Positions 11,704-43,116 of a DNA stretch of 63,086 bases are shown here, in pieces. Made by a program: the position numbers and the translations under genes. Below the pieces are notes generated by a model. It saw only the letters and a program-made list of their open reading frames with translations, was not told the DNA's origin and did not search any database. The stretch covers positions 1-63,086 of the forward strand of contig JBMFRC010000016.1 of NCBI GenBank assembly GCA_049968235.1, written 5' to 3'. The first letter of the stretch is position 1; each line of letters begins with the position of its first letter. The stretch is from Candidatus Hydrogenedens sp. GTDB lineage: Bacteria; Hydrogenedentota; Hydrogenedentia; Hydrogenedentales; Hydrogenedentaceae.

Positions 11704-11720
11704 ATACATAGTATATGTAT
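11704..11720 (+). promoter_or_regulatory. Candidate operator: inverted repeat ATACATA-gta-TATGTAT next to the -10 element
   Basis: The 7-bp arms are exact reverse complements. The outer ATAC...GTAT ends resemble the ends of described CsoR-family operators, though the core here is AT-rich. Confidence 0.35.
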
Positions 11721-11744
11721 ATTATCCGATTAAGGAGAAATATT

Positions 11745-12026
11745 ATGCAAAAAGAAGAAGAAAAGAAGAAAAAAATTGTTGAACGACTTAATCGAATTGA
11801 AGGGCAAATTCGAGGACTTCGTGTGATGATAGAAAAAGAAAAGCCCTGTTTTGATGTTTTAAAGCAGGTTTCTGCAGTTCGTGGAGCCCTTCGTTCTTTA
11901 GGCCAGGTCATTTTACAGCAACATCTCAATGAGTGCCTATTATCTTTTGGTGAAAATGAAGAAAAGATAAAAGAATTTAAAGATAACCTTGTTCACTTGT
12001 TTTCAAAAATTTGTTCCAGTGAATAA
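11745..12026 (+). CDS. CsoR/RcnR-family (DUF156) metal/persulfide-sensing transcriptional repressor; CstR-like by context
   Basis: AAGGAG at 11732-11737, 7 nt before the ATG at 11745. I prefer this start to the ORF-track start at 11715. The IERLNRIEGQIRGL helix is the CsoR signature. Cys (KPCFD) and His-x3-Cys (HLNEC) fill the W-X-Y-Z sensing positions. Confidence 0.85.
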   Translation: MQKEEEKKKKIVERLNRIEGQIRGLRVMIEKEKPCFDVLKQVSAVRGALRSLGQVILQQHLNECLLSFGENEEKIKEFKDNLVHLFSKICSSE

Positions 12027-12053
12027 AAATTAACAATATAAGGAGATATATCC

Positions 12054-14498: not shown

Positions 14499-14525
14499 TT
14501 CGTATGTTATAAAATACAATCTACG

Positions 14526-17384: not shown

Positions 17385-17405
17385 AAATTTTCTCCTTCAA
17401 TAGGT

Positions 17406-18650
17406 TTAACCTTCCTGAATTACTCGTTTAGTATGGTCATAAATCTGTCGTTTACCTGTATCATAAGCAATCATTGCCATAATACATGCTACCGCATGTT
17501 GGTAACCCGCGTCAATATTTGCATTTGGTTCATTCCCGTTACGCATGCATTGTAACCAATCTAAAATATGGTCAGGACGCTCTATGGGTTCAATTTCTTT
17601 CTTTTCTTTTAGTGCGTCTGTTTTTGTAAATGCACCATCAGGAAGTAAAACAGGATTATTCCAATCCTGTAAGTCCATCAATCCCTGATTTCCAAAAATC
17701 TTAAAAGAATTGCCAGCACCGTTCCCAAAGTTAGTGGAATAAGACACCATAAATCCTTCCGGATATTTCCATAGCACCTGAATATGGTCAGGGCAGGAGA
17801 AATTATATTCATCTTTCCATGTATAGATATCGCCTGAACAAACCGCACTTTCCGGAAATTGGGCGCCGGTAATGTAGTGCACCAAATCTATAAAATGACT
17901 TCCCCATTGAGGGATAGGTCCATCTGAAAAATCACGGTAACCATACCATGCGGAACATAGAACCGGATTAAACGGTTTATCTGTTACACCGGCTGTAAAT
18001 TCCTTCCAGTTAACATCTGCCGGATTTAAGTCAGTTACGATTTTCGAATACCAATACGGTTTATTCCCATTTCTACATTGTTCTACCCGACTTACTTTTC
18101 CGAGAATACCCGATTTATATGACTCGCGAGCACCTGTAAAACTGGGATAACTCCGCAATTGTGTCCCAATTTGAACTATAACTTTATTATCTTTAACCGC
18201 ATCATAAGCAGAGATAAGTTCTTTCATATGGTTCGCTAATGGCTTCTCACAGTAAGCGTGTTTCTTCATCTTTGCAGTTGCTTCTAATTGGCGAGCATGC
18301 ACATGGTCTGCGGAAGCAATTACTACCGCATCCACTTTCGCCTTTGACAGGAGGTCCTGATACGACTCAAATTGTTGTGGGTCTTTGCCATATACATCTT
18401 TTACCATTTTCGCCATTTTTTCTCGTTTCTCTTTCCACGGGTCGCAAACGGCAATAATTTCTACATTTTCTTTATCTTTATAGGCGCTGATTTGTTTAAA
18501 ATGGTCATGAGACCTACCTCCACAACCTATCATACCGATAGTAATCCGGTCATTCGCTCCTGCAATTCGTGAATAAGTTAATGCAGATAAGGTAACTGCT
18601 GTGCTTAAAGATGCAGTCTTTAGAAATTCTCTACGCGTTTTCTCTTTCAT
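17406..18650 (-). CDS. Tat-exported Gfo/Idh/MocA-family oxidoreductase, copy 2 (tandem paralog)
   Basis: About 85% identical in protein to copy 1. I prefer the start at MKEKTRREFLKT (18650) by analogy with the paralog. The ORF-track start is 18668. Confidence 0.85.
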   Translation of the reverse strand: MKEKTRREFLKTASLSTAVTLSALTYSRIAGANDRITIGMIGCGGRSHDHFKQISAYKDKENVEIIAVCDPWKEKREKMAKMVKDVYGKDPQQFESYQDLLSKAKVDAVVIASADHVHARQLEATAKMKKHAYCEKPLANHMKELISAYDAVKDNKVIVQIGTQLRSYPSFTGARESYKSGILGKVSRVEQCRNGNKPYWYSKIVTDLNPADVNWKEFTAGVTDKPFNPVLCSAWYGYRDFSDGPIPQWGSHFIDLVHYITGAQFPESAVCSGDIYTWKDEYNFSCPDHIQVLWKYPEGFMVSYSTNFGNGAGNSFKIFGNQGLMDLQDWNNPVLLPDGAFTKTDALKEKKEIEPIERPDHILDWLQCMRNGNEPNANIDAGYQHAVACIMAMIAYDTGKRQIYDHTKRVIQEG

Positions 18651-18949
18651 AAAATTTTCTCCAATCACAATATTAGTTATTTACAATGATTATGTTCCAA
18701 AAACTATTTCATACATTACTACATTATTTTCTATTGTTTCAAAATGTATTTTTTGTCCCTCACTCTCGAACCAATCTACTGGATAAAAATTTTTTATGCC
18801 AACAAACTTTTTAAGTAAGGAGGGATGCTTATGCTACATTTGATATAATAGAGCAAAAGAATGTCTTTACTACAAAATGACATTTTGTTTTATATTTTTC
18901 ATGTAATGCAAATATGTCTATGGAGATAATTATTAGAAAAGTCCATATA

Positions 18950-26549: not shown

Positions 26550-28259
26550 ATGAATACTCACATTAAAGAAGTTATACAAAATGTTTTAGAAAATAAGTGG
26601 AGATATAATTTACAAAATATTTCCATACGAAATACTGTTCCTATAGATATTACGGACAAATTAATTGCCTTTACACTTTGTGTAGTATTTATTGCTTTTG
26701 CTTTATGGATAGGCATTGTTAGTTCCCGACCTTTTCAATGGCCCTTTAATTGGGATACCCTTCGCGATATAGGAATTGCACAAACCTTCCTTGATAAGAC
26801 TTACCCTGAAGACCCTATATTAAAAGGAGAAATTAATTGGTATAACCCCCTAACGGGATTTGTAATTGCCCTATCCAGCAAAATACTCGATACATCATTA
26901 CCCAAAACATGTATGCAAATAGGTCCCTTTTTGCAGTTATTGCTACCTATTGCAGTGATGTTATTAGCATGGAATTGTTGGGGACCATGGGCAGGTTTCT
27001 TATCTATAACATACTTTATTTTTGCAAGACACCCTTATCTACCCGAGTGGATGTATTCCTCTTATTCCCCCTGGCTAATAGCACCCCAGTGGGGGAAAAC
27101 ATTTTTTTTCTTAACAATTCTTATGTTTATTCTTTATGCTGAGAAAAAGAAACACCTATTTTCTATTTTATGTGGAGTGTTTTTAGGGCTGGGATTTCTC
27201 ACACACACGGCAGTTTTAATAGAAGCGGGATTATTTATTGCTTTGTATTCCCTTGTTAAGATTATCCAGTTTTCTCGTTCTTCCCTGAGACAGGAACTTA
27301 TACAATACCTCAAAGGAATAGGTATCCTTCTGGGGATAGCACTTTTTTTGAGCAGTCCTTATTGGTTACCCATTTTTATTCGTTATCGATTCATTATTCG
27401 CAATCCCTATCCATCTCTTTATGTAACCTCAGCCCTTGAATTGAAAAATCTTCCAACAACTTTGCTAAAAAGTGCTAATGGTTTTACTGTGATAGGTGTT
27501 ATCTCTATTTTATTTTTCTTTATCCACAGAAAAAAACAAGAATTATGGTGGTTGAGGATATGGACAGTAGTGGTCCTTCTTTTAGTATTTCAACAGATAA
27601 TATCTCAGTGTTTATACTATTATGGCTTTGCATTTCCAGCATTTTTTCCTCCCCATCACACCTTTATGTCCGTTCATGCGTTAATAGGATTCTGGTTTGT
27701 TTACGGCTCTCTTCAGGTAGCAGGGGTGATTGTTCATTTTTTCCAACGCAGAAACATTCATTACTGGCTTCAGAAGGGAATATACCTTGTTGTTTTATCT
27801 TTGATATTCCTTATGGGTGTGACTACTTTGGTAAGACCTATTCCACCACTACACGAAATCTATCGCGGAATGGAAGTAAATAAATTGGCACATGATGTTG
27901 CTCGATTTGATAACGTTTATAAATGGATATTAAATAATACAACACCTCAGGACTTATTTTTATGTGATGAGGTTACAGGAATCTGGACAGTTATGCCTGC
28001 AGGTAGAAAACTGGTTTATACCATGATGTTTTACATGAACCCTTATTGTGAAATAGGCTACCGTATAGGATTCCTTAATTATATATGGAATCCACTCCGA
28101 GAACAGCGGTATAGTGATTTTCTTGCTCTCTGTCAACAAAAAAAACTGAACTATATTCTTTTACGGCATACGGATGAAAATAAACCTCTTCTGGATAAAA
28201 TGAAAAAAATACATAAATGTTATGAAGACCATCAGGTTGTTATATACAAAATTCCATAA
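26550..28259 (+). CDS. Polytopic integral membrane protein (>=10 predicted transmembrane segments); possible GT-C-type glycosyltransferase
   Basis: 569 aa, dominated by hydrophobic helices, with a roughly 150-aa hydrophilic C-terminal domain. Convergent with the GT-C-like operon. Confidence 0.5.
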   Translation: MNTHIKEVIQNVLENKWRYNLQNISIRNTVPIDITDKLIAFTLCVVFIAFALWIGIVSSRPFQWPFNWDTLRDIGIAQTFLDKTYPEDPILKGEINWYNPLTGFVIALSSKILDTSLPKTCMQIGPFLQLLLPIAVMLLAWNCWGPWAGFLSITYFIFARHPYLPEWMYSSYSPWLIAPQWGKTFFFLTILMFILYAEKKKHLFSILCGVFLGLGFLTHTAVLIEAGLFIALYSLVKIIQFSRSSLRQELIQYLKGIGILLGIALFLSSPYWLPIFIRYRFIIRNPYPSLYVTSALELKNLPTTLLKSANGFTVIGVISILFFFIHRKKQELWWLRIWTVVVLLLVFQQIISQCLYYYGFAFPAFFPPHHTFMSVHALIGFWFVYGSLQVAGVIVHFFQRRNIHYWLQKGIYLVVLSLIFLMGVTTLVRPIPPLHEIYRGMEVNKLAHDVARFDNVYKWILNNTTPQDLFLCDEVTGIWTVMPAGRKLVYTMMFYMNPYCEIGYRIGFLNYIWNPLREQRYSDFLALCQQKKLNYILLRHTDENKPLLDKMKKIHKCYEDHQVVIYKIP

Positions 28260-28261
28260 TT

Positions 28262-30520
28262 TTATTTTAGTAAAGAATAGTCAATATCTTTTTTTAAATG
28301 TTCTGTTGGGATTTGTAAATCTTCCGCTCTATGAAAAGCCTTTTCCACCGCATTTTTATCGCAGGTAATTGCAGAAGGGTGATAAATAAAGTGCCAGCCA
28401 ATGGGTAAAACAGGCTGGAGATGAAATAGCAAGGACCAGCACCAATTAGCAGTTGTAACATTGGATAATCTATCGCAGGTTTGTCCCCAGAACCACCAGA
28501 ATAATGGTTCTTTGTTACATTCTTTAATCAATTGTGCGAAATAGGAGAATGCTCCTTCGTAATCCTGTTCTGCAAAACATTTTACGCCATTCCAGAAAAG
28601 GACCGATAGGTCTTCTTGTGATGTGGCATAATATAGTAATATGCATTCTTTCTCAAAATTTACTTTTGTTGAAAACCCTTCATAAAATTGAACTATCTGA
28701 TTTGGGTTCTGTTCCCATGCGTGCTTTAATAAGTACTCTGCTTGGTTATATTTTTTTAATCGTGCCAACTCCATAGCACACCGAACAAAATGGAAACCTG
28801 TGCGGTCATGATCATAGCGGTGTCTCTTATAAAATATACCTGATGCAAGGCTTGCTTCACTAAATAATTTTCTCGTTAATTTTTTTATGTCTAAATTTAT
28901 TGTGAATATGTTTTCACATTTCAATTTTTGTAAAGAGGAAATTTGATATAGATATATTTTCTGTTCGCCGGGTAAGGTATAAACAAAGAAGTAAAATCCA
29001 TATTGTTTCAATACCGAAGGAAATGTATTTAAGCCTGTTCCATATACATCCGGGATAACAATCCATATCTTCGTTTTTTCTATCTGGTTTGTACCTAAAC
29101 TATTAAAATAAACCTGTGTTAGATTTGCCAATCCCTCCTCAGTATATGCATCTGTTACAGGCAAGGAAATATCTTCATTATTGAGCCTAAAAATGGGCAT
29201 CCAGAAGGGGTCGCGAATTATTACCAAGTCGTGCATCCCTTGATTTTGGGAAATAATTCTCCCTACTCCTTTCCAGTCCATTCGCCATGAACTTTGCGAC
29301 ATAATTCCTATTGGATAAAGAAGCACAACTATAAGAAGGACAATAGCAAACCATTTAATCCATTTTCTTGATTGTGAAAGGAAATAGGCAATCCCAATGA
29401 AATGTAATGGAATGAGAAAGACAATATACCTCGTTGTAAAAACAGGTGGTCCAAGTCGTGCAAGGCAGAACAGTAAAAAAGGAGGGATAGTAAATAAGAC
29501 AAGGAAGAAAAAAGAAATGTGAAATGTATTATCTCTTCGTATCCACCTACGAATAGTTTCATATACCAAACCCAACAAACCTAACAAAGAAAAAAGAACA
29601 AGAGCCAACTCAAAACCTTTTTGAGAGTAATGTAAAATAGACCCAATAATGGAGGACGAATACTGCCACGGATGTGATATACCTATCGGGCAAATTCCCC
29701 CTTTCCCAACAATATTAAGAACAAAAGGAAATGATAATAACTCCCAGAATGAAGGTTTAAGATAATATCGGTGTAATTCACCGGGTTGAGGTGGAATGGT
29801 TAAAATCCAACTGAACCATGGGATTAAAAATATGGAATGTATAATAATTAGAGCAATCGATTTTCTTATATATCTTTTTCCCTTATATGGCACAGCAATT
29901 AAAAGTAAGAACTCTGTAGCCCATATAATTACCCCGATATGGTGTGTCCATAACAACATTTGATTGACAAGTATCCAGAATATAAGGGTTCGATTATTGG
30001 ACATGTTATCCATCACCTTCATGAACAAGAAAAACGAACCCCAGACCAGAAAAAGGTATGCTATATACATCCGTGCTTCCTGTCCAATAAAGATAAGAGC
30101 AGGGGAGAGAGTTATCCCTATGCAGACGAGAGTTTTCGTACCGGCAGGTAACTTACCTTGCCGTTCCAGTTTGTTTGTAATAACCCAGAACATAAGATAG
30201 AAACCTATCCAGATACAGATACTTAACAAACGAATAGAAACAATCCCTGTTCCTGAGTATCTTCCCCAGAGGTATTGACATAAAGGAAACAAAATGCCAC
30301 CGTAAGGATATGTATTCCTTTGTTCTTTTATGAAATGAAATACGGAATGGAGATTTAGATTGGCTATGCATGCATATTCTTCCAGCGAAATGGACTCTTG
30401 AGAAATTCTATATAGACGGAGTAATATCCCGACAATTAGAAAAAAAAGAAAGAAAAAAACGTCATAGTTGATGTTTTGTTTTGAATTTAACAGTATTTTG
30501 TTCTTACTTAGAAGAATCAT
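28262..30520 (-). CDS. GT-C fold membrane glycosyltransferase (ArnT/PMT-like, GT39/GT83-type) with a C-terminal soluble TPR-like domain
   Basis: 752 aa. Transmembrane helix 1 is followed by the acidic loop motif SLEEYACI, at the position of the DE/DExxY motif of ArnT/PMT enzymes. About 11 transmembrane helices precede a 350-aa soluble domain. Confidence 0.55.
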   Translation of the reverse strand: MILLSKNKILLNSKQNINYDVFFFLFFLIVGILLRLYRISQESISLEEYACIANLNLHSVFHFIKEQRNTYPYGGILFPLCQYLWGRYSGTGIVSIRLLSICIWIGFYLMFWVITNKLERQGKLPAGTKTLVCIGITLSPALIFIGQEARMYIAYLFLVWGSFFLFMKVMDNMSNNRTLIFWILVNQMLLWTHHIGVIIWATEFLLLIAVPYKGKRYIRKSIALIIIHSIFLIPWFSWILTIPPQPGELHRYYLKPSFWELLSFPFVLNIVGKGGICPIGISHPWQYSSSIIGSILHYSQKGFELALVLFSLLGLLGLVYETIRRWIRRDNTFHISFFFLVLFTIPPFLLFCLARLGPPVFTTRYIVFLIPLHFIGIAYFLSQSRKWIKWFAIVLLIVVLLYPIGIMSQSSWRMDWKGVGRIISQNQGMHDLVIIRDPFWMPIFRLNNEDISLPVTDAYTEEGLANLTQVYFNSLGTNQIEKTKIWIVIPDVYGTGLNTFPSVLKQYGFYFFVYTLPGEQKIYLYQISSLQKLKCENIFTINLDIKKLTRKLFSEASLASGIFYKRHRYDHDRTGFHFVRCAMELARLKKYNQAEYLLKHAWEQNPNQIVQFYEGFSTKVNFEKECILLYYATSQEDLSVLFWNGVKCFAEQDYEGAFSYFAQLIKECNKEPLFWWFWGQTCDRLSNVTTANWCWSLLFHLQPVLPIGWHFIYHPSAITCDKNAVEKAFHRAEDLQIPTEHLKKDIDYSLLK

Positions 30521-32675
30521 ACAATTTGTATCGCTCTATATTTTCTCGAACATTTCTGAAATCCCATGCATATCTCCAATGCTTGTTATAACCTTTGATA
30601 GAATTATCCTGGGGTACAGCCAGAGTTATTAAAAAAGGTTCCATAGATGGGTTCTCTGCCCGATAAAGCCCACAAAATGAAGTTTCATATCCCTTCGGTA
30701 TCTCAATCCCTTTCCACGCCCCACGAACCCATATAATAGGTTCCTGATTATTAAAGACAATCTCATTTCTTGGTTTGATAGTAGATGCAGAGTAAACTAA
30801 GAAATAGATACTTATCCGATGAGGTATGTTTCCCTTAATATACCAATGGAGGAGTGGGTTTAAGGGTTCTGAAAAATCTACTGCGTAATATGTATTATCA
30901 TATCTGGAATAAATAGAAAAGTCTTTTGCTAATTCAAAATCAGCACGTAGAAACTCAAAAGGGGTTTCCATAATAGGCAGTTCGGATACTTTTTCGAAAC
31001 GGGGTAAGGTTTTTGAAGGTTGGAATAAGATGCTCGTTCCAGTATCAATTTGATTGAGATTTACCTTCTCCCAATTCAATTCGCGATAGGAGGTGATAAG
31101 TTTTAATAACTGATGTTTCTGCCATAAAATTAAAGTTGCATATAGTAATGAACAGGAACAGACTACAATTATCAGAACAATAACACCGTTACGCAGTCCG
31201 ATTAAAATACTTTTTCCGGACAATTCTTTTCGATACATACCGTAAAGGGTTGTAAATAATTCATACATAAACAGAATGACAATTCCGTATAAAATAGGGG
31301 TCAGGTGAACTACATGCCGATATTCAAACAAGATGGAGGGATAACCTAATAGATAACCTAAAACTCCGGAGATTAGTATCCCTTTCCAGATATTTTTCAC
31401 ACTCACAATAAAAATTAATCCCAATAATATCCACGGTCCGATATAAGCAAGAGGAATATCCCAATAATAAAAATGGTCAGTGAAAAAAAAGGACCAGGAT
31501 GGTCGGTTAAATTCCGGATGGTTTTGCTTTTGTTCCCTTGTAAAGTTATAAAGTGTCGAGAAACAATTACTACAAGCGGATAGGATGCGACCCCATAAGT
31601 CCGCAGGAAAATGCCATGCAACAGACCTGAAATAAGCCCTACCTGCAGTCCCGTATGCTGGTGATAAATAGTTATCAAAGGGTTCTTCAAAACCTGTTCG
31701 TCGTGCAAAGGACGCAATTGTTGAATGGACAAGCATATCATTGGGTTCATAAACAAGCCGATAGGAAGAATTACCACCCATTAAGGTTTGTTCGATGGTG
31801 CTTGCAAGACCCTGCACCAATGAATGGCTGGATACCGCCCCTTTATCCTCAGCAATTGCTAACAATATAGGATAGCCTGATGCAAGAAAAGATAGCAGAT
31901 AAAGAACGATACAACCTATACTCGCATGAATTTTCTTATAATATAAAAATTTAGCACCAATGATACCTATAAACACCAGCCCTAAAAAGAATAAAATAAG
32001 TACATCCTGGCGAAATCCCAATCCAATGCCTATTACGAAACCTAATACAGATGAAACAATTGTAGTTCTCCATACATACTTATCCGAAAAATAGAACATG
32101 CTTGCTGAAATTGCAAGGAATAGCATAAAAAAAGTAGTTTTTGAATAATCTCGGATAGATGGCAGGAGAAAAAGAAGAGAGGGGGAATTCATGACCAGGC
32201 AAGTTGTTATAAAAGCAGGTACGCTCCCTCCAAATATATACAAAGTAATGTAAACCGCTATTACACTAAGAACGAAAACTATCCCGGCATATATTTTTAA
32301 TACATCCCAGTTTATTCCAAACCATTGCCATAATATACCTATTGTATATATTAGATAGCGATGTGTCCTTACAAAACGGCTGTTATCCCATGTGCCCCAA
32401 TCTTTGGGTAGGTCAGAAAATTGCAGAGAATTTGTTTTCTGTTCCAGAAACAATCGAATGTTTTTTGGATAAGGTGCTTTAGGTGTCGTGAATCCCTGTC
32501 CACAAGCGATAGATATGGCATTTACCAGCCATTCCTGTTCGAACCGATAGTCCCGTCCAATCATTTTGACACGGATTGTTAAATGTTCATAAACAATCCA
32601 TGAAGAGAAAACAACAATGAGTAAAAAAAGGATTAAATCAATAATAATTCTCTTCATTGTATCGTTTTTGTTCAC
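30504..32675 (-). CDS. Polytopic membrane protein, GT-C-like, of unknown specificity
   Basis: 723 aa with more than 12 hydrophobic helices and a C-terminal soluble domain. It overlaps both neighbours (17 nt and 4 nt), indicating translational coupling. Confidence 0.5.
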   Translation of the reverse strand: MNKNDTMKRIIIDLILFLLIVVFSSWIVYEHLTIRVKMIGRDYRFEQEWLVNAISIACGQGFTTPKAPYPKNIRLFLEQKTNSLQFSDLPKDWGTWDNSRFVRTHRYLIYTIGILWQWFGINWDVLKIYAGIVFVLSVIAVYITLYIFGGSVPAFITTCLVMNSPSLLFLLPSIRDYSKTTFFMLFLAISASMFYFSDKYVWRTTIVSSVLGFVIGIGLGFRQDVLILFFLGLVFIGIIGAKFLYYKKIHASIGCIVLYLLSFLASGYPILLAIAEDKGAVSSHSLVQGLASTIEQTLMGGNSSYRLVYEPNDMLVHSTIASFARRTGFEEPFDNYLSPAYGTAGRAYFRSVAWHFPADLWGRILSACSNCFSTLYNFTREQKQNHPEFNRPSWSFFFTDHFYYWDIPLAYIGPWILLGLIFIVSVKNIWKGILISGVLGYLLGYPSILFEYRHVVHLTPILYGIVILFMYELFTTLYGMYRKELSGKSILIGLRNGVIVLIIVVCSCSLLYATLILWQKHQLLKLITSYRELNWEKVNLNQIDTGTSILFQPSKTLPRFEKVSELPIMETPFEFLRADFELAKDFSIYSRYDNTYYAVDFSEPLNPLLHWYIKGNIPHRISIYFLVYSASTIKPRNEIVFNNQEPIIWVRGAWKGIEIPKGYETSFCGLYRAENPSMEPFLITLAVPQDNSIKGYNKHWRYAWDFRNVRENIERYKLYDSSK

Positions 32676-34249
32676 TTATTATCCGGGTTATCACGGGTGT
32701 TATTGTTATTGTATTTTAACATAATGTTCAAACTATCCTGTGCCAGTCCGTCATCCGGGTAATATCGTAAACACTCCTGATACATCTCAATACTTTTTTT
32801 AATCTCTCCTCTGTTGGCAAATACATTCCCTGACAACCGCATAGCAATTCGGGAATAGGGGTGTTTTTTTAGAAATTCCTGAGCCACTTCATTGGCTTGA
32901 GCAATGTTTTTTGTTTTTAATAACCAATCAATCAATTGCATATTAATCTTTTCATCATTTTGATTAAGTTTATATGCATACATATATCCTTCAACTATCT
33001 TTTCTTCTATTTTATCTCCGAGTTCTTCCGTTAATTGTTTTTCTTTTTCAGAAATAATTTCTTGGGAGATGGGGTCAATAATCACTGCCTTCTGCATCTG
33101 TAACTGTAACAATTCTGTCGCATGATTCCATCCTAAATAATGAGAACAATCTTCCATACTTATCAAAGGAATATCTCCTTTTTCCGTTATAATATTGCGT
33201 TTTTTCAGAATAGTTGAAATTGCCTTAAACCACTCGCACGCGAGCAGATAATTCCCCTCAAATGTGAAGTGAATATTATCACAGAAATACTCATAACCTG
33301 GAATACCCTGCGGACTCTTCTTTGCAAGTATTCCATCCACATCGACCAGATGCACATTTTTTGAAAATATTTTGCATGTATCCACAATACATTTATTCAT
33401 TTCTGTCGGTTCAAAACGGATGGTATCCCATTCCTCTTTTTTTTTGCCAAATTTCCTGTTATAGGATAAAGTTCCTACAATTACATCTGCATGAGCATAC
33501 ATTCCTGCATAAATCATATCCCTTAGGTTATTTTTATATAGTTTTAGGGTTCTTTTCCCCTGTCCTTGTTTTGGAAGAAATGGGAATAAGTCCTTTGGTT
33601 TTTGTTCACGCCACTTTGTACTCTGACTTTGTTCAAATAATTGCACCATTCGAAGATGTTTTAAATAAGTATGTAACCGAATCATAGTATTCGTTCTTAA
33701 AAAAGGAACTGAATACAGTAAGGAATGTTCCCCATAAGGACCAATTGTTTCGTTATTCCCCATGTAAATGATAAAGAAATCCGGCGATAGTTTCGAGCAT
33801 GCCTTTGCCAGGAAATAAAGAACATGGGAATTGATACCCGGGCACGATACATTATATATTTCCCAATTTTTCTCGGGGATAGAGTACTTTAATATAACTT
33901 CTAACTGTCTTACCGAAGATTCCAGTCCATACATTGCAGATTCCCCAAAAACAAATATTCGAAGGGTATCTTTATTTTTTTGTTCTGGGACATAAAAATC
34001 AAGATGGTCCCAATTTACAAAATCGTGCAGTGGAATATTAAAAAATTGTTGATAAAAACTGCGATTAGGGACAGATAGGGTTAGTGTGCTGAAATGTTTT
34101 TGTATAAGAGGTTGTCGGTCTTCGCCCTTGTTTAAGAATCGTAAAGAACATTCAAATAAAAAAAGAATCAATAAAGGTAATAGCCATAGCACGAGTTGAA
34201 TAAAGAGGAATAGTACCTTTCTTCGGAACAGTTTTTGATGTGTCTTCAT
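32672..34249 (-). CDS. SGNH/GDSL-type hydrolase domain protein with an N-terminal transmembrane anchor and C-terminal TPR repeats
   Basis: N-terminal transmembrane segment. Block-I-like RIFVFGESAMYG. C-terminal TPR-like region (YQECLRYYPDDGLAQDSLNIML). Confidence 0.5.
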   Translation of the reverse strand: MKTHQKLFRRKVLFLFIQLVLWLLPLLILFLFECSLRFLNKGEDRQPLIQKHFSTLTLSVPNRSFYQQFFNIPLHDFVNWDHLDFYVPEQKNKDTLRIFVFGESAMYGLESSVRQLEVILKYSIPEKNWEIYNVSCPGINSHVLYFLAKACSKLSPDFFIIYMGNNETIGPYGEHSLLYSVPFLRTNTMIRLHTYLKHLRMVQLFEQSQSTKWREQKPKDLFPFLPKQGQGKRTLKLYKNNLRDMIYAGMYAHADVIVGTLSYNRKFGKKKEEWDTIRFEPTEMNKCIVDTCKIFSKNVHLVDVDGILAKKSPQGIPGYEYFCDNIHFTFEGNYLLACEWFKAISTILKKRNIITEKGDIPLISMEDCSHYLGWNHATELLQLQMQKAVIIDPISQEIISEKEKQLTEELGDKIEEKIVEGYMYAYKLNQNDEKINMQLIDWLLKTKNIAQANEVAQEFLKKHPYSRIAMRLSGNVFANRGEIKKSIEMYQECLRYYPDDGLAQDSLNIMLKYNNNNTRDNPDNK

Positions 34250-34291
34250 GAAACAGATATTTCCTGATACAATATAAAGTCAAAAATCTTA

Positions 34292-35296
34292 TTATATATC
34301 TCGCTTCCATTTTTCACGAACGATAAACGCAGGAATACGGTATAAAGCGAGGAAAGAACGCATCGCAAATTCACCGATAATAGAGAGTATTGCTACAATA
34401 ATCAGCAACGAAAAAACGATAACATTCAAAATTAGCCCGGGGGTAATCTCCTTCATAATGCTATAATCCAGGAAGAAGGCAGAAAGGATACGGAGAAAGA
34501 ACAAAAATCCGAAGATAACACATAATATCGCCATCCATTGGAACAAACGTGGAGACATGCGTACCAGATTGTCCATGTTGTATTGCCAGAGACGCCAGAA
34601 GGTATATCCAGATTTCCCATAAGGTCGTGGAAAATGTTGAACGGGCACCTCCACACATCGTCCCGCACGCGAAACCACATCCGCAGTACGGAAAATATTA
34701 AAAGGACCGTATTCAAAAGCACGAACAAGGTCTGCTCGATAAATTTTATAAGTACAGCCGAAATCGGTCAGCGGGATACCGGAAGATTTCCGCATAATCC
34801 AATTAGCAACCTTTGATGGAATGCGTCGGAGAATACTATCCTGTCGTTGTATGCGACACCCGCTTACAACATCAAAACCCTCATCATATTTCTCTATTAA
34901 CTTAGGGACATCTTCAGGTGCTAATTGTAAATCACTATCTATAAGTATAATTGCTTTACCGCGTGCATCCATAATACCTGCGGTAACGCCTGCCTGTTGT
35001 CCTGAATTGCGATATAAATTAATTACTGAAAAAACCCGTTCATCCTCCTTGTAAATTTCTTTTAATATTTCCCATGTTCTGTCGGTACTCCCATCATTTA
35101 CAAATATTATTTCATATGACCTTCCTGTTTTTTCTAAGGTATCTTTTAGACGGCGATGAAATTCACGGATACTTCGTTCTTCATAATAACAACTGATAAC
35201 TATAGAAAACTCTATATCTGAATGCTTTGTATCTATAGCCATCCCTTTATACCTCATTCCCTGATATAGATAGTTCATTTCTCTTGGCAATGGCAA
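34292..35296 (-). CDS. GT2 polyprenyl-phosphate sugar synthase (ArnC/DPM1/GtrB-like)
   Basis: FSIVISCYYEE...EIIFVNDGSTDRT (GT-A DxD region) plus two C-terminal transmembrane helices. The real start may be the internal Met near 35245, which would abut the upstream stop. Confidence 0.8.
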   Translation of the reverse strand: MPLPREMNYLYQGMRYKGMAIDTKHSDIEFSIVISCYYEERSIREFHRRLKDTLEKTGRSYEIIFVNDGSTDRTWEILKEIYKEDERVFSVINLYRNSGQQAGVTAGIMDARGKAIILIDSDLQLAPEDVPKLIEKYDEGFDVVSGCRIQRQDSILRRIPSKVANWIMRKSSGIPLTDFGCTYKIYRADLVRAFEYGPFNIFRTADVVSRAGRCVEVPVQHFPRPYGKSGYTFWRLWQYNMDNLVRMSPRLFQWMAILCVIFGFLFFLRILSAFFLDYSIMKEITPGLILNVIVFSLLIIVAILSIIGEFAMRSFLALYRIPAFIVREKWKRDI

Positions 35297-36029
35297 AAAT
35301 AGACCCGCACATGTCTGGATATTCCAAACCTAAACGATATAATCCATCAATTTGAGATGGTCCCAAAATGCCGGAACGATATAATTGGTCTAATTGGAAA
35401 TCTGCCAATATTTTTAGAAAGATACCCCCTTGATGAATTATTTTAAATCCTTCATGTTCCAGGTCACGGTTTAACCGAACACGGTCGTACATCCTTCGAT
35501 GCCCGTGCTGAATGTCATGTGGTGTAAAATCGTCCAATTCTTCTAATATACGCATATGTCGGGCTAATTGACGGGACAAAGCACGTGAATTAGGAACCAC
35601 GACATAAAGAATGCCATCGGGTAATAGCAATCTTCGAACTCTATTTAACAAAACGGAAATATCCAGGACATGCTCCAATACATATATAGCAAAGATAACA
35701 TCATATTGTCTACCTGTCTTTTCAAGGGTTAATTCTTCGAAAAGAGAGGAAATAAAGCGGACATTGGGAAGATTCTTCTTTTTCCCTTCCCAGATAAAAG
35801 ATGCATTTCCCTCTGCCACATCTAACTCGAACAGCAAAGGAGCTAGCATCTCTGTATCAACACCTTCCGCATATCCTAGTTGAAGTCCTACCATCTTCTG
35901 ATGCAGATAGGGTTGAATGGTCCGCACAATAAGTTCCCGTATAACACGGTCTTGCATGGACCCTTTTGTATATGTCTTTCCTACATGTTCAATAAATTCA
36001 TGTTCATCCATACCATAAACTCCAATCAA
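35247..36029 (-). CDS. Class I SAM-dependent methyltransferase
   Basis: Methyltransferase motif-I region (VGLQLGYAEG) and a post-I acidic region (DVIFAIYVLEHV). Confidence 0.7.
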   Translation of the reverse strand: MIGVYGMDEHEFIEHVGKTYTKGSMQDRVIRELIVRTIQPYLHQKMVGLQLGYAEGVDTEMLAPLLFELDVAEGNASFIWEGKKKNLPNVRFISSLFEELTLEKTGRQYDVIFAIYVLEHVLDISVLLNRVRRLLLPDGILYVVVPNSRALSRQLARHMRILEELDDFTPHDIQHGHRRMYDRVRLNRDLEHEGFKIIHQGGIFLKILADFQLDQLYRSGILGPSQIDGLYRLGLEYPDMCGSIFAIAKRNELSISGNEV

Positions 36030-37362
36030 TCAAACTTTCTATCATATCTACGCTGAACACAGGTATTTTTAATGTCTCATACACTTCCTTGCGTTCCTGA
36101 TAGGAGTCGTCAATGAATATAGGTTTCTTCGATTGAATATAGGACGATTTTTTTTCTCCTTCGTGCAATTCAATAAATGTATTTATTAGTTTATCCAATC
36201 CCAATGAATGTAATGAAATTTCATATTCCCCTTTATGTCGTGTAAGCACAGTTACAGGAATGCCGGCTCCCTTACATTGTATCAGAAATAAAACTACAGG
36301 ATAGTTTAACTTTCCATGAATAACCAGACAATCATCATAATCAATATAAACATGGTCAAAAAAATAGGGTTTCTTTGTATGGGATTGCAATAATGGAGAA
36401 ATGAAAGCTTTGGGAAAATAATTAAATAAACATCTCTGCATTTCCTGTGGGAAAGGCTGTTCCGTAATCTCCACAGGTATACGCAGGGCATCGTAAACAG
36501 TTAGTAACGGTAAATTAACCCCACGATTGCGAAAAAGACCCATTCCTCCACTAACCCGTGGGGCAATTTCAAGGAGAACCAACTCACCATTAGCCCTCTC
36601 TTTCATCTGAAAAAACCAGGCACCTCGAAGTTTTAGATGCTTATTAATTACCTCTGCAAAGCGTATAAATCTATAGCGATTGGTTACCTGCGTATCAACA
36701 CTAATTCCATGAGATATGCGAATACGCTCCCGTGCCCCTGAAAAGATTAATTCCCCTACATAGTTTGTAAAACAATCAATGGTATATTCCTTCCCGGGTA
36801 GATATTCTAAAATGAGTAAATTTTTTTTATTTTCCAGTATTCCTTCCAGTTCCTTCTGGCTTTCTACACGAAAAACCCCTTTTGACCCTTCACCTATCTT
36901 TGGTTTTAAAAATACAGGAAAATAAGGGATTTGATGGGGCTGTTTAAATACTTTCGGAATAGATAATATCCCATCGAAATATTTATAAGTTTTCTCTTTA
37001 TCCCGACAAATCCGACAGGTCTTCACCGGGGAGATTAAAACTTTGCAAGGTAAATCGTGCTGATGCTCCGCCAAATATAATCCTGCTGTATCATGAGCGG
37101 GGAAAATAAAATCAATTTTTAATTTTTCCAATAGCGAACAGAATCTTTTTAGGAAGGACCTTTCGTTTACAAAGGGTAGTCCGGTGTAGTAATGTTTGAA
37201 CAGCATACCCCCCGGATCATTTTCGAGGCTGGTGGCACCAAATAATTCTATATGCTGAGAATAGGACAAAGAACGAAATATTTCAAGTCCTATTTCTGTC
37301 CCTCCCGGAAAAATCATTACACGGACAGGCTTTTTTAATTTTGAAGTGTCCCTTCTTTTCAT
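36004..37362 (-). CDS. ATP-grasp ligase domain fused to a C-terminal HAD-like phosphatase domain
   Basis: N-terminal pre-ATP-grasp and ATP-grasp pattern (VRVMIFPGGTEIGLEIFRSL...KPKIGEGSKGV...LILEYLPGKEYTIDCF). The C-terminal ~110 aa carry HAD-like motifs (YIDYDDCLV...IFIDDS). Confidence 0.6.
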   Translation of the reverse strand: MKRRDTSKLKKPVRVMIFPGGTEIGLEIFRSLSYSQHIELFGATSLENDPGGMLFKHYYTGLPFVNERSFLKRFCSLLEKLKIDFIFPAHDTAGLYLAEHQHDLPCKVLISPVKTCRICRDKEKTYKYFDGILSIPKVFKQPHQIPYFPVFLKPKIGEGSKGVFRVESQKELEGILENKKNLLILEYLPGKEYTIDCFTNYVGELIFSGARERIRISHGISVDTQVTNRYRFIRFAEVINKHLKLRGAWFFQMKERANGELVLLEIAPRVSGGMGLFRNRGVNLPLLTVYDALRIPVEITEQPFPQEMQRCLFNYFPKAFISPLLQSHTKKPYFFDHVYIDYDDCLVIHGKLNYPVVLFLIQCKGAGIPVTVLTRHKGEYEISLHSLGLDKLINTFIELHEGEKKSSYIQSKKPIFIDDSYQERKEVYETLKIPVFSVDMIESLIDWSLWYG

Positions 37363-38522
37363 GTCTCAGCCCATTCAGGAAAAATTTTTATCATCTCACA
37401 AATTTTTATAACATATTCATGGGGTAAATTCCCATACATAGGCAAACATAAAACTCGTTCTGCTGTTTCATCTGCGTTAGGTGTCGGTATTTGAGGAATA
37501 TCGACTCTTTTTGCATAATAGGAGATGCGATTGCATAAGGGGTAAAAATATTTTCGCACAATCACATTACATTGGCGAAGTCTATTGAACAATTCATCCC
37601 GTGAAATACCATACTTCATTTTATCTACCTCAATAGGGAAGTAAGCATAATTCCAATCACAGTCTTTGGGTTCTGTAACCGTTCGAATCCCGGGGCAAGC
37701 ACTTAACTTTTCACAATATAATTTGTATAAATCTTTCCTTTTCCTTATTTCTTCTGCTACTTTTGGCAATGATGCAAGACCAAAAGCAGATGAAAGTTCG
37801 TTCATTTTTCCATTAATTCCAACGCCGACGACAGTTTCTTCATCAGCAATTCCGAAATTTTTCATTAAATATGCCATTCGTGCCTGTTCCGGTTTATGAC
37901 AGATCAAAGCTCCACCTTCTGCTGTTGTAAATAGTTTAGTTGCATGAAAACTCAACACGGATAAGTCCCCGTAATCACATAAAGAACGTCCTCGATACCA
38001 ACATCCAAAGGTATGTGCGGAATCGTATATTATCGGTATAGAATATTTTCTTGATAATTTAGAGAAAGCGTCAACATCGCAAGGTATTCCATAAACATGC
38101 ACCGGTAAAATGGCTTTTGTGTTCGGAGTTATATATCTCTCTACCATTTGTGGGTCCAAATTATATCCACCCGACTGAATATCGCAAAACACAGGTTTCA
38201 ATCCGTTCCAACAAATAATATGAGGTGTAGCCGGGAAAGTAAAGGGAGTTGTGATAACCTCTCCTTCTTTTATATCCAGTATCTTTAATGCTATCAGTAG
38301 GGCTATAGTCCCGTTGCAAAATAGAACCAATTCCGATACATTTAGAAATTTTTTTAGTTCAGATGTAAACTGCTGATGCCAGTAGGCTTCATTTGTAAGC
38401 CAGAGCGTCTCCCAGATTTTTGAAAGAAAAGAACTATACTCTACCTCTGCAGGCATCATGGGTCGTGTTACATATACTGTTTCCGGAAATCGTTCTTGCT
38501 CGATATATTCATTTAATTCCAT
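37359..38522 (-). CDS. DegT/DnrJ/EryC1/StrS-family PLP-dependent sugar aminotransferase (ArnB-like)
   Basis: SFHATKLFTTAEGGALI contains the PLP-binding Lys. I prefer the start at MELNEY (38522). The ORF-track start at 38645 would overlap the divergent gene. Confidence 0.85.
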   Translation of the reverse strand: MELNEYIEQERFPETVYVTRPMMPAEVEYSSFLSKIWETLWLTNEAYWHQQFTSELKKFLNVSELVLFCNGTIALLIALKILDIKEGEVITTPFTFPATPHIICWNGLKPVFCDIQSGGYNLDPQMVERYITPNTKAILPVHVYGIPCDVDAFSKLSRKYSIPIIYDSAHTFGCWYRGRSLCDYGDLSVLSFHATKLFTTAEGGALICHKPEQARMAYLMKNFGIADEETVVGVGINGKMNELSSAFGLASLPKVAEEIRKRKDLYKLYCEKLSACPGIRTVTEPKDCDWNYAYFPIEVDKMKYGISRDELFNRLRQCNVIVRKYFYPLCNRISYYAKRVDIPQIPTPNADETAERVLCLPMYGNLPHEYVIKICEMIKIFPEWAET

Positions 38523-38615
38523 ATTTTCGATAACCTCATTTCGAAGATGACAACTAAAACCCGTTACAATAATACAATAAATTTTATTTAGTTTAACATA
38601 ATCGGTGTCATTATT

Positions 38616-39665
38616 ATGAATAAACAAAAATATTCGGAAATACAATCAAAAGATTATCCTTACAAAAATAAGGGTATTCATGTTCTTGTAAACATAGGCT
38701 TATTTCTTGCAAGTCTTCTTCTTTGTTTTACTATTGCAGAAATATTTTTTGCCTATTGGGAAATGAAACTTCTCAAATCTATGGGGGTGTTTATACCCGT
38801 TGACCCGCGTTACGATGGTTCTGCATGGGAAGTAGACCCCATGCAGGCAAACCGTTTTACATGGCAATCGGATGGAAACAGTATTGTTCACATTCGCTCT
38901 AAAAATAAAAAACTTATGTATGAACTGCGACCCAATTCGGTAATTTCCGGAATGATAAAAATTAATTCGGATGGTTTTCGTGACCGTGAATTTTCTCGCG
39001 AGAAGCCACATCATGTGTTTCGAATCGCAGTAGTTGGAGATTCTGTTACTTTTGGCTGGAGACAAAGATTGGAAGATACCTATCCCAAAAAATTAGAACA
39101 ACTCCTTCAAGCAAATAACAAAACAAACACACAAATTGAAGTGCTAAATTTTGGAATAGGTGGTTATAATGCAGAGCAGGAGGTTGAACTTATAAAAACA
39201 AAGGTGCTTAATTATAATCCTGACCTTATACTTATCGGTTTTTGTCCGAACGATGGGCAAATCGGTTTCGATGGTGGGCTCTGGTGGCATTTTTTTCGCG
39301 GACCTTCCCGAACAATTTCTTTTCTCAAACTCCTGTATTTATACAATAAGTATAAGCATGATGACCTTGCATTGTTAAAAAATCCTTATTCGGAATTGGC
39401 AGAACTATCAAGGCAGAAAAATATTCCTGTTTGTGTATGCATTTTCCCGATGTTGCAGGGAGATAAACTCTGGTGTCCACCCCGTTTTATTCCTTTATTA
39501 GATGAATTAAAAATTCCTTATATTAATCTTATTCCGGAATTTGAAAAGAAAAATGTACCGGAACTTTTATTAGACGTAGTGCATTTTACGGTAGCAGGGC
39601 ATTATTTTGTTGCAGAACAGATATACCATTATCTTACGGAAAACAAAATAATCTCCTTACAATGA
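38616..39665 (+). CDS. SGNH/GDSL hydrolase family protein with an N-terminal transmembrane anchor
   Basis: N-terminal transmembrane helix. Block I RIAVVGDSVTFGW and block III LILIGFCPND. Confidence 0.6.
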   Translation: MNKQKYSEIQSKDYPYKNKGIHVLVNIGLFLASLLLCFTIAEIFFAYWEMKLLKSMGVFIPVDPRYDGSAWEVDPMQANRFTWQSDGNSIVHIRSKNKKLMYELRPNSVISGMIKINSDGFRDREFSREKPHHVFRIAVVGDSVTFGWRQRLEDTYPKKLEQLLQANNKTNTQIEVLNFGIGGYNAEQEVELIKTKVLNYNPDLILIGFCPNDGQIGFDGGLWWHFFRGPSRTISFLKLLYLYNKYKHDDLALLKNPYSELAELSRQKNIPVCVCIFPMLQGDKLWCPPRFIPLLDELKIPYINLIPEFEKKNVPELLLDVVHFTVAGHYFVAEQIYHYLTENKIISLQ

Positions 39666-39744
39666 GAAATGTAACAAGTCCGGCAAATCAGACGAGGCTG
39701 GCGAGTCTAACAGGTCTGATAAGTCCGACAGGTCCAACTCCGGT

Positions 39745-41214
39745 TTACGCATTTCCCTTAACTTTATGGATAATACTTGTCGTTGATTGTCCTTCTACAC
39801 CGGGAATAAGTGCAATTCGACCACCATAACTCTCTACAAATCGCCGCTCAGGCTGAACCAATGTATCTATCGTATAATCCCCTCCTTTAGCGTATACATC
39901 TGGTTTTAACTGTTTAATTATTGGGAGAGGAGATTTCTCATCAAATAGAACAATGTAATCCACGCACTCAAGAGCGGACAACACCAATGCACGATTGTGT
40001 TCATTAATGACCGGTCTACCCTCTCCTTTTATTTGACGCACTGAGCGGTCACTGTTCAAACCTACAATCAATACATCTCCTTCATTCTTTGCTCGCATGA
40101 GATAGGTAATGTGACCCACATGCAGGATATCAAAACAGCCATTTGTCCATACAATCTTCTTGTTTTGTTCTTTCAATTGCTGAACAATCTTTTTTAATTG
40201 CGGCAATGTCTTCAATTTGAAAGGACCACCAGCACTTAAAAGAGCCTGCTCGACCTCTTCTCGGGAAACAGTAACTACTCCATGCTGGGCTACCGCTACA
40301 CCCGCAGATGTGTTTCCCAATACTGCACATTCATAAAGATTTGCTCCTGCAACTAAGGCTAAAGCAACTGTTGCGGTTACTGTATCGCCGGCTCCTGTTA
40401 CATCAATAACCTGAACGGGAGCAATTGGAACATCTTCAATTTTGCCGTTTTCATAAAAAATAGTTATGCCATCGGGTCCACGCGTTATCATTGCATTTTT
40501 TGCCGATTTAAGTAAAAATTTTCCCGCTTTTTTCAGTGTTTCATAATCTACAACATGGATGCCTGTGGCAATACCTGCTTCTTTATCGTTCGGAAGTATT
40601 ACATCAAAACCCTTAAAAATATTAGCCCGTGCACGGGAATCCGCAACGGTAATTAAATTATACTTTTTGGCACATTCTGTTAAGGCGGACAATACCTCAG
40701 GCGTTATAACAGAGGATACCTGGTCTCCCACCATAATTACATCCACCTTTTTGGCTACTTTATATATATTTTTGATGATTTGTTCTTCTACTTTACCCGA
40801 AATAGGTTTAGGACGTGGGGTATCTGTGCGGAGAACCTCTTGTGTGGGAATATTATGTCCACCTGCCCGAAGTTTCCCATATGTGTTTGTAGGTCGTGTC
40901 GGGTCAACCACAAGATAATCAATGTTTACATTTCGTTTCTGAAATTCATTCCTTAAAATTTCTGCATTTGAGTCCGCACCCACGACGCCCAACATATAGA
41001 CCATAGCACCAAGGGCAGAAGCATTGCAGGCAGCATTTCCTGCGGCTCCAGGATTATATCGGCGTTCTAATACCTCCAATACAGGAATCGGGGCTTCCAG
41101 ACTTACTTCTGTAACCTTGCCATAAACATTCTCATCTAAGTAAATATCTCCAATAGCAAGAACTCGCACTTTATCAAATTTTGATAATAGAGAAAAAAGC
41201 CGTTTTGTATCCAT
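39745..41214 (-). CDS. hldE: Bifunctional D-beta-D-heptose 7-phosphate kinase / D-beta-D-heptose 1-phosphate adenylyltransferase
   Basis: N-terminal PfkB/ribokinase-like domain (VLAIGDIYLDENVYGKVTEVSLEAPIPVLEV). C-terminal cytidylyltransferase-like domain (IVWTNGCFDILHVGHITYL...VGLNSD...RPVINEHNRALVLSALECVDYIVLF...KGGDY) matches RfaE domain II. Confidence 0.9.
   Translation of the reverse strand: MDTKRLFSLLSKFDKVRVLAIGDIYLDENVYGKVTEVSLEAPIPVLEVLERRYNPGAAGNAACNASALGAMVYMLGVVGADSNAEILRNEFQKRNVNIDYLVVDPTRPTNTYGKLRAGGHNIPTQEVLRTDTPRPKPISGKVEEQIIKNIYKVAKKVDVIMVGDQVSSVITPEVLSALTECAKKYNLITVADSRARANIFKGFDVILPNDKEAGIATGIHVVDYETLKKAGKFLLKSAKNAMITRGPDGITIFYENGKIEDVPIAPVQVIDVTGAGDTVTATVALALVAGANLYECAVLGNTSAGVAVAQHGVVTVSREEVEQALLSAGGPFKLKTLPQLKKIVQQLKEQNKKIVWTNGCFDILHVGHITYLMRAKNEGDVLIVGLNSDRSVRQIKGEGRPVINEHNRALVLSALECVDYIVLFDEKSPLPIIKQLKPDVYAKGGDYTIDTLVQPERRFVESYGGRIALIPGVEGQSTTSIIHKVKGNA

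Positions 41215-41475: not shown

Positions 41476-43116
<1,641 letters not shown>

Follow-up and report, generated by a model that had tools for sequence, protein, structure and literature searches.

What do the tightly packed minus-strand genes between positions 38522 and 28262 of contig JBMFRC010000016.1 (Candidatus Hydrogenedens sp., assembly GCA_049968235.1) make, and where is their product used? The stretch of 63,086 nucleotides that was analysed, called the window below, encodes here a cassette in which sugar-tailoring enzymes, a candidate polyprenyl-phosphate sugar synthase and large membrane proteins stand together; a first-pass annotation had read it as an Arn-like pathway with three GT-C transferases. 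The answer favored here, with a probability of roughly 0.55, is that the cassette carries out extracytoplasmic glycosylation via a polyprenyl-phosphate-linked, tailored amino sugar, as a donor-tailoring version of three-component (Gtr/Arn-type) systems. The genes concerned are listed in the order of the operon, followed by the divergent gene and the spacer between them (ORF, open reading frame; SAM, S-adenosylmethionine; aa, amino acids).

37359..38522 (ORF 37359-38645), minus strand: DegT/DnrJ/EryC1 aminotransferase, 387 aa from the likely start, ATG 38522
36004..37362, minus strand: ATP-grasp/HAD fusion, ATP-grasp at residues ~1-320, capless HAD at ~335-452
35247..36029, minus strand: class I SAM methyltransferase, ~254-260 aa, start codon uncertain
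34292..35296, minus strand: GT2 of the ArnC/GtrB/DPMS type, likely start Met14 or Met19 (near 35257 or 35242)
32672..34249, minus strand: SGNH-TPR protein, 525 aa, SGNH-like at ~90-340, TPR at ~420-515
30504..32675, minus strand: protein of predicted GT-C fold, 723 aa, C-terminal beta-sandwich at ~535-690
28262..30520, minus strand: TPR protein of predicted GT-C fold, 752 aa, alpha/beta domain at ~416-530, TPR-like at ~546-750
38616..39665, plus strand: SGNH/GDSL hydrolase, 349 aa, divergent from the operon start
38523..38615: divergent intergenic region, 93 bp, AT-rich, between the 349-aa SGNH gene and the DegT operon

The ORF map confirmed the seven minus-strand genes, which are packed tightly or overlap in one orientation, and both flanking plus-strand ORFs at the coordinates given in the first-pass annotation, and its DegT, ATP-grasp, methyltransferase, GT2, TPR and flanking GDSL domains were all recovered by Pfam and NCBIfam (the scans covered every module gene and, among the 44 window ORFs with 150 aa or more, ~38). 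The 752-aa and 723-aa genes overlap by 17 nt, and overlaps of 4 nt exist at two other junctions, one of them that of the 723-aa and 525-aa genes. A shared promoter presumably lies in the 93-bp spacer (38523..38615); it was not demonstrated, since consensus matches in a promoter and terminator scan were no commoner than in shuffled sequence. Rfam and tRNA scans of the whole window were empty.

That these genes form a unit was observed in related loci (designated by L and a number). The order divergent SGNH/GDSL, DegT, ATP-grasp/HAD, methyltransferase, GT2, SGNH-TPR, GT-C (723 type), GT-C-TPR (752 type) was found in seven independent loci with protein identities of 38-86% and three different downstream contexts, which is beyond chance. 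The unit is complete in L002, L007/L010 and L009, and complete yet frameshifted in L003, while contig ends truncate L008 (which begins at the methyltransferase), L011 and L012. DegT orthologs are 63-84% identical in every module locus reaching that position, and the divergent SGNH gene keeps its place in L002, L003, L007, L009, L011 and L012 (64-77% identity); the most conserved module protein is the GT2 (77-86%) and the least conserved are the GT-Cs (38-65%). The 569-aa gene and hldE, which flank the module in the window, were excluded on synteny, and the unit was taken as eight genes with two GT-Cs. The cassette is nearly confined to the uncultured phylum Hydrogenedentota: all named carriers are metagenome-assembled genomes (MAGs) from it, except one bin labelled Nitrospirales. 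Parts of the module lie in L012 and L001 (GCA_964655185.1), from a MAG labelled "uncultured Nitrospirales bacterium", which could reflect mis-binning or lateral transfer.

The lipid-carrier step is indicated by the GT2. It matched Glycos_transf_2 in Pfam (4e-31) and, over its full length, the Protein Data Bank (PDB) entries of ArnC (3.2e-42, residues 12-301), GtrB (3e-32) and DPMS (1e-17), and it has two C-terminal transmembrane (TM) helices (~247-319). By these matches it is a member of the polyprenyl-phosphate glycosyltransferase family of the ArnC/GtrB/DPMS type, as the first-pass annotation had proposed. Identity as an ArnC equivalog was rejected: the best NCBIfam model, ArnC NF007986, scored 157 bits against a cut-off of 529, though the family likeness is clear at 3e-42. 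Three-component periplasmic glycosylation is characterised by a polyprenyl-phosphate sugar synthase together with a GT-C enzyme (PMC11127046).

Whether the large membrane proteins are GT-C enzymes could not be read from sequence searches. None of the three polytopic proteins in the region (752, 723 and 569 aa) matched anything in Pfam, NCBIfam or PDB sequences, and neither the 752-aa nor the 723-aa protein matched Pfam or NCBIfam models for GT39, GT83 or PMT_2. Single-sequence and family-profile searches against PDB sequences gave TPR matches or nothing for all three, Pfam found nothing in the isolated 752-aa alpha/beta domain or the 723-aa beta-sandwich, and profile-profile comparison (hhalign) detected no relation among the three families, which are thus not recent paralogs. 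Because no hidden Markov model (HMM) or sequence match was found, the GT-C nature of the 752-aa and 723-aa proteins was tested separately by structure prediction. The AF2 model of the 752-aa protein (pLDDT 80, pTM 0.74) was compared with the PDB using Foldseek, and each of the best 15 matches was a GT-C enzyme. Seven reached E <= 0.001: PglB (1.7e-5), ArnT (4.5e-5), ALG12 (5.5e-5), AglB and Pmt4, followed by ALG9 and AftB. Pmt4, Pmt2 and Pmt1 were among the top GT-C structural matches, and ArnT was among the top for both models. The predicted structures thus assign the 752-aa and 723-aa proteins to the GT-C fold, and both would be extracytoplasmic sugar transferases. Of the three GT-C enzymes that had been placed in this pathway, these two therefore stand by structure search and lack HMM support, and the third, the 569-aa protein, falls away by synteny.

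The acidic motif SLEEYAC, which had been singled out beforehand, corresponds to residues 45-51 of the 752-aa protein, directly after TM1, and proved near-invariant (conserved in at least 90% of 15 sequences). Its E47-E48 pair lies in the 47-residue first outer loop and is kept in essentially all homologs, in the place where solved GT-C enzymes have their catalytic acidic residue (PMC11127046). The C-terminal ~200 residues are TPR-like, with TPR profile matches at 7e-8, and the family comprises 14 clusters among 5.8 billion proteins. The 723-aa protein has ~11-13 TM helices and an 84-residue first outer loop; a deposited protein of Candidatus Hydrogenedens is 100% identical to it. Conserved residues of the GT-C pair are E47/E48 and R175/D176/R222/D224, and the 17-nt overlap of the two genes raises the possibility that the proteins act as a pair.

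Each SGNH protein is anchored by one N-terminal TM helix, with the catalytic part facing outward. The 349-aa protein matched Lipase_GDSL_2 (6.9e-10) and Lipase_GDSL (2.4e-6) in Pfam; it consists of a cytoplasmic lysine-rich N-terminus, a TM helix at ~22-45 and an extracytoplasmic domain with GDS, GGYN, PND and DVVH blocks. Blocks collinear with these are invariant in eight orthologs of the 525-aa protein (GES 102-104, G138/N140, GNN 164-166, DNIH 324-327), and its TPR region was recognised by Pfam and by profile matches to CTPR and OGT TPRs down to 1e-14. With a TPR domain each, the 752-aa GT-C and the 525-aa SGNH protein would be suited to docking onto a protein or a polymer-export machine, and this suggests an acceptor other than lipid A. 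In this respect they resemble TMTC-type protein O-glycosyltransferases and polymer-export scaffolds, not enzymes of lipid A modification.

The nature of the sugar is indicated by the DegT protein (Pfam DegT_DnrJ_EryC1, E = 1e-91). Its best PDB match was DesI (2po3, 2.3e-55), the dTDP-4-keto-6-deoxyglucose 4-aminotransferase, ahead of ArnB (~1e-37 to 1e-39), and among NCBIfam models DesI (TIGR04427) scored 287 bits and ArnB (NF008658) 164 bits, both below cut-off (631 for ArnB). The protein is accordingly predicted, from homology, to be a DesI-like NDP-4-keto-6-deoxyhexose 4-aminotransferase (NDP, nucleoside diphosphate). ArnB identity was rejected, the DesI model and the DesI structure both scoring better.

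Directly after it in the operon stands the fusion protein. Its ATP-grasp part matched ATPgrasp_Ter (3e-21), ATP-grasp_3 and ATP-grasp_4 in Pfam, a PRK12767-type NCBIfam model and PDB entry 2pn1. The HAD part was called by its motifs, D341-x-D343-x-[T/C], T374, K405 and D418-D419, which are invariant in four orthologs, and it is kept at full length in relatives from many phyla. The methyltransferase matched Methyltransf_23 (2.2e-16), and its orthologs (47-48% identity) lie directly after ATP-grasp/HAD genes in loci of Sideroxydans, Gallionella and Burkholderiaceae.

The ATP-grasp/HAD alignment was scanned against one genome per species, which gave 208 loci with full-length relatives, HAD included, at 36-47% identity, from Bacillus, Clostridium, Bacteroidota, Candidate Phyla Radiation (CPR) phyla, Methanosarcina, Pseudoalteromonas, Marinobacter, Gallionella and others. 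Neighbors were then counted by local BLAST and neighbor clustering at 76 loci outside the module. A DesI-like DegT gene was found at 61 of them, typically immediately upstream on the same strand, an SDR dehydratase-type gene at 34, a true RmlA at 25 (479 bits against a cut-off of 361) and an orthologous methyltransferase directly after the ligase at three, all in betaproteobacteria; TagF-type, TarI, ABC-transporter or Wzx genes were frequent, and an RmlC-type domain was present in L083. The partnership with RmlA, SDR and DesI-like DegT points to N-acylation of a dTDP-4-amino-4,6-dideoxyhexose, not of 4-amino-4-deoxyarabinose (Ara4N). The ATP-grasp/HAD protein is therefore predicted to be an amino-sugar N-acyl ligase that also dephosphorylates the acyl group. 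The earlier suggestion that the amino sugar is N-acylated, methylated or both is supported by these partners across phyla, and comparative genomics supports both modifications of an NDP-4-amino sugar. Literature searches found no characterised ATP-grasp N-acylase of 4-amino sugars and no characterised member of the DegT plus ATP-grasp/HAD pair.

Two other accounts of the tailoring genes bear on this census. One is an uronamide route such as that of Cj1435-Cj1438 in Campylobacter jejuni, in which the DegT enzyme would convert a phospho-ketone to an amino-alcohol phosphate (e.g., serinol phosphate), the ATP-grasp enzyme would amidate a uronic acid at C6, the HAD domain would remove the phosphate, and the GT2 and GT-Cs would deliver the uronamide. 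The same enzyme triad is experimentally established in C. jejuni, the one such precedent (PMC11800397, PMC11800379), the route gives the fused HAD a natural role, and it needs no 4,6-dehydratase, as fits a module with none nearby. Against these points, Cj1438C is TupA-like (PMC11800379) whereas no TupA-like domain was among the Pfam matches of the cassette ATP-grasp (ATPgrasp_Ter, ATP-grasp_3 and ATP-grasp_4 only), the DegT is far closer to DesI (2e-55) than to other DegT-family PDB entries, and in other phyla the pair keeps company with RmlA and SDR, not with UDP-glucose dehydrogenase. We consider the uronamide route improbable and, as the ATP-grasp subfamily differs, keep the C. jejuni analogy as a rival only.

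According to the other account, also unlikely, the two halves of the cassette travel together and are functionally separate: the tailoring genes would feed a cytoplasmic Leloir transferase encoded elsewhere, and the GT2, GT-Cs and SGNH proteins would add a plain hexose or N-acetylhexosamine. Outside Hydrogenedentota the usual company of the pair is indeed cytoplasmic enzymes of the GT2, GT4 and TagF types together with ABC or Wzx exporters, and orthologs of the present GT-Cs are not part of it; within the module the GT2 is far more conserved than the GT-Cs. However, the seven genes are packed in an invariant order across loci down to 38% identity with differing flanks, no Leloir glycosyltransferase is linked to them, and a few other phyla place the pair near a GT2 with two TM helices and a protein with 10-14.

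Arrangements of the last kind were seen in L051 (810-4852), L061 (9228-13305), L087 (15541-18186) and L046 (3980-4939), where the pair lies near an ArnC/GtrB-like GT2 with 2-3 TM helices; L051, L061 and L087, not L046, also hold a protein of 680-1030 aa with 10-14 TM helices. The large polytopic proteins of L051 and L061 showed no relation to the 723-aa family, and the four arrangements may be independent couplings of the tailored sugar to the lipid-carrier route. The DesI-like DegT plus ATP-grasp/HAD pair as such was noted among L013-L088 (e.g., L031, Bacillus pumilus, 5919-14270; L068, Pseudoalteromonas; L074, Marinobacter), in teichoic-acid-like or capsule-like clusters with RmlA, SDR, TagF-like, TarI and ABC-transporter genes. 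In L071 (6017-14644, a Gallionella MAG; L056 and L083 are similar) the DegT/ATP-grasp-HAD/methyltransferase triad comes after a 930-aa protein with TPR and GT41 (OGT-like) domains and is itself followed by a radical SAM/SPASM enzyme and a Methyltransf_24 protein. An arrangement of this kind may mean that the same tailored sugar is used to glycosylate proteins in the cytoplasm.

Is the cassette, as was first thought, an Arn-type system that places a cationic amino sugar on lipid A or core and thereby makes the cell resistant to cationic peptides? Among solved structures ArnC is closest to the GT2, both GT-C models have ArnT among their top matches, the DegT is clearly related to ArnB, although more closely to DesI, and hldE next door shows that lipopolysaccharide (LPS) here contains heptose. 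The general logic of tailoring, GT2 and GT-C thus holds, but membership in the Arn system does not: ArnC and ArnB score far below their cut-offs (157/529 and 164/631 bits), ArnA, ArnD and ArnE/F were found by Pfam/NCBIfam neither in the scanned window ORFs nor among the called genes of related loci, and a DesI-like DegT acts on 6-deoxyhexoses. ArnT belongs to GT83 and is recognised by the PMT/PMT_2 HMMs, which neither GT-C matches, and it is only one of many GT-C enzymes among their structural matches. N-acylation would neutralise the amine, contrary to the part that charge plays in Arn. ArnT does not characteristically have TPR domains, and the adjacency of hldE is not conserved. Nothing found points to lipid A, which the earlier reading had named as an acceptor; the TPR domains argue against it in particular and fit a protein or polymer better. 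A true Arn-type lipid A system is very unlikely.

Extracytoplasmic glycosylation with a tailored amino sugar would proceed as follows. The DesI-like DegT would aminate an NDP-4-keto-6-deoxyhexose, probably dTDP-linked and supplied from elsewhere in the genome, to the 4-amino sugar, as its homology and partners suggest. The ATP-grasp domain would activate a carboxylic acid as acyl phosphate and N-acylate the 4-amino group, and the capless HAD would remove a phosphate from the acyl donor, for example a phospho-hydroxy or phospho-amino acid; fusion to a HAD domain suggests that the donor is phosphorylated. The SAM methyltransferase would methylate the sugar, and the GT2, whose family is clear from its matches and whose substrate is predicted, would load polyprenyl phosphate with the completed sugar on the cytoplasmic side of the membrane. 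After flipping of the lipid-linked sugar, the two GT-Cs, by their predicted fold, would move it to one or two extracytoplasmic acceptors, and the two membrane-anchored SGNH proteins may, in the extracytoplasmic space, remove acyl groups from the donor or the product or add O-acyl groups to either.

Several observations weigh against this scheme. The source of the keto sugar is unaccounted for: searches by tblastn with RmlA and two representatives of the SDR dehydratase type, made in the 63-kb window and within 10 kb of the module in every related locus, detected neither a nucleotidyltransferase nor a 4,6-dehydratase. The sole SDR of the window (605-1672) belongs to a different subfamily, with 23% identity to the cassette-associated SDR found elsewhere, and was rejected as a local source on the same grounds. 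No GtrA, SMR or MATE flippase gene is present in the cassette, which has no spare coding space, and none was seen in related loci; a flippase gene could lie elsewhere. Predicted structures are the basis of the GT-C assignments. The HAD domain gave no HMM match when its region was scanned in isolation with Pfam, so that the HAD call stands by its four motifs (I-IV), invariant and in order, and lacks HMM recognition. The same holds for the SGNH call on the 525-aa protein, which is carried by its collinear invariant blocks: Pfam Lipase_GDSL reached E = 0.058, no HMM recognises the domain, and in the PDB the profile of the protein picks up TPR entries only. No evidence singles out the acid, the methylation site or the acceptor, and, as all carriers of the module are uncultured, glycan chemistry for comparison is lacking.

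The genes that flank the unit are given here, as is what was seen of them elsewhere.

26550..28259, plus strand: polytopic protein, 569 aa, converging on the operon end; outside the unit
39745..41214, minus strand: hldE, beyond the 349-aa gene; outside the unit

Synteny ruled out both as parts of the system, their closeness to it being a chance feature of this genome. The 569-aa gene follows xseA-xseB-FPP synthase wherever it occurs, in L005 with no module nearby: it lies directly after FPP synthase in the window, L004, L005, L007 and L009, and xseA-xseB precede where the contig reaches (23875-26524 in the window). This constant position suggests a link to polyprenyl metabolism. The protein has TM1, a 56-residue loop, ~10 TM helices and a 135-aa C-terminal domain. 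R72, D88, W97, P100, H219 and H370 are invariant in the family; within the loop, R72 and D88 are present in every sequence and D69 in at least 90% of a broader set. The family, which has no Pfam model, comprises 1015 representative clusters at E <= 0.001 and 421 at E <= 1e-30, nearly all of 520-600 aa. It is a candidate GT-C protein, the evidence being the fitting architecture and, as the only HMM support, weak matches of some of 74 relatives to DUF6798 (5/74), a member of the GT-C clan, PMT_2 (4/74, best 4e-5) and Dpy19 (1/74). The hldE product scored 349.5 against a cut-off of 521 with the whole-protein model NF008454, 243 against 345 with the kinase model TIGR02198 and 195.5 against 181.5 with the adenylyltransferase model TIGR02199, the only one passed. 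It adjoins the module in no related locus, so the relevance first attached to it lapses.

Three further features of the window were recorded. At 11715-15293 (plus strand), genes for a CsoR-like repressor (103 aa), an 814-aa fusion (CoA-disulfide-reductase-like, rhodanese, TusA, DsrE) and a DUF1638 protein follow one another; the same trio lies immediately downstream of the module in L008, which indicates local rearrangement between relatives. Two tandem Gfo/Idh/MocA oxidoreductases (16140-18668, minus strand), whose best NCBIfam model, glycoside 3-dehydrogenase (BT_2158 family), scored well below cut-off, have no link to the module in other loci. A GroEL-family chaperonin gene (41500-43116, plus strand) has no groES upstream, and the 285-bp gap between hldE and it contains no plus-strand ORF of at least 40 aa.

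Three-component systems are common, so the concept itself is established and not surprising; the leads are the GT-C families, the fused ligase-phosphatase and the widespread, uncharacterised pair. If the favored reading is correct, the strategy of an undecaprenyl-phosphate sugar and a GT-C extends to heavily tailored N-acyl amino-6-deoxy sugars, two GT-C families lacking a Pfam model would be added, one of just 14 clusters, and a first view would be gained of envelope glycobiology in Hydrogenedentota, a phylum with no cultured carriers of the module. The DegT plus ATP-grasp/HAD pair is present in over 200 species, among them cultivable ones of Bacillus, Clostridium, Pseudoalteromonas and Marinobacter, and its chemistry would probably account for N-acyl groups of surface glycans that are so far unassigned. 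A bolder proposal, which is tentative and somewhat doubtful, is that delivery of an ATP-grasp-acylated, methylated 4-amino-4,6-dideoxyhexose via polyprenyl phosphate would be seen here for the first time. A heteromeric GT-C pair of two undescribed families (one with TPR) and the two periplasmic SGNH enzymes would then form a machine specific to Hydrogenedentota that glycosylates envelope proteins or an exported polymer, and the DegT and ATP-grasp/HAD proteins would represent a widespread, uncharacterised NDP-amino-sugar N-acyl ligase family that uses a phosphorylated acid.

How does the cassette compare with known systems? Like Arn, it combines a DegT-family aminotransferase acting on a nucleotide keto sugar, N-acylation before lipid loading, an ArnC-type GT2 and GT-C transfer outside the cytoplasm, as far as its predicted functions go. 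Unlike Arn, it lacks ArnA, ArnD and ArnE/F, its DegT is DesI-like and would thus act on a 6-deoxyhexose and not a pentose, its acylation would be carried out by an ATP-grasp/HAD ligase instead of a formyltransferase, and it adds a methyltransferase, two SGNH proteins and two Pfam-orphan GT-Cs where Arn has the GT83 enzyme ArnT.

The PMT/TMTC O-mannosyltransferases (GT39/GT105) and bacterial PMT_2-TPR proteins share with it the GT-C domain and an acidic pair after TM1 (DE there, EE here), and TMTC also has a C-terminal TPR; they differ in that the 752-aa and 723-aa proteins match no PMT/PMT_2 HMM and have no MIR domain.

Anthrose of Bacillus anthracis is an N-acylated, methylated 4-amino-4,6-dideoxyglucose, and the anthrose and viosamine pathways use acyl-CoA- or acyl carrier protein-dependent N-acyltransferases and cytoplasmic Leloir transferases, whereas the cassette would use an ATP-grasp/HAD ligase and the polyprenyl-phosphate/GT-C route. 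What is shared is the predicted product class, to which the modified viosamine of Pseudomonas syringae flagellin (PMC3927599) also belongs.

The C. jejuni HS:2 enzymes (Cj1437/Cj1436, Cj1438C, Cj1435) likewise employ a pyridoxal phosphate (PLP) enzyme, an ATP-grasp amidoligase and a HAD phosphatase to furnish a sugar with an amide-linked, initially phosphorylated substituent; there, the ATP-grasp is TupA-like, the enzymes are separate proteins, and they act on the growing capsule chain in the cytoplasm.

From the three-component systems (GtrA/GtrB/Gtr*, CsbB/GtcA/YfhO, GT136 pentofuranose; PMC11127046) the cassette differs in having no flippase gene, tandem GT-Cs, three tailoring enzymes and two SGNH proteins, and in GT-Cs that by sequence fall into no described CAZy or Pfam family; with them it shares their defining pair, a polyprenyl-phosphate sugar synthase and a GT-C whose genes stand side by side in one portable set.

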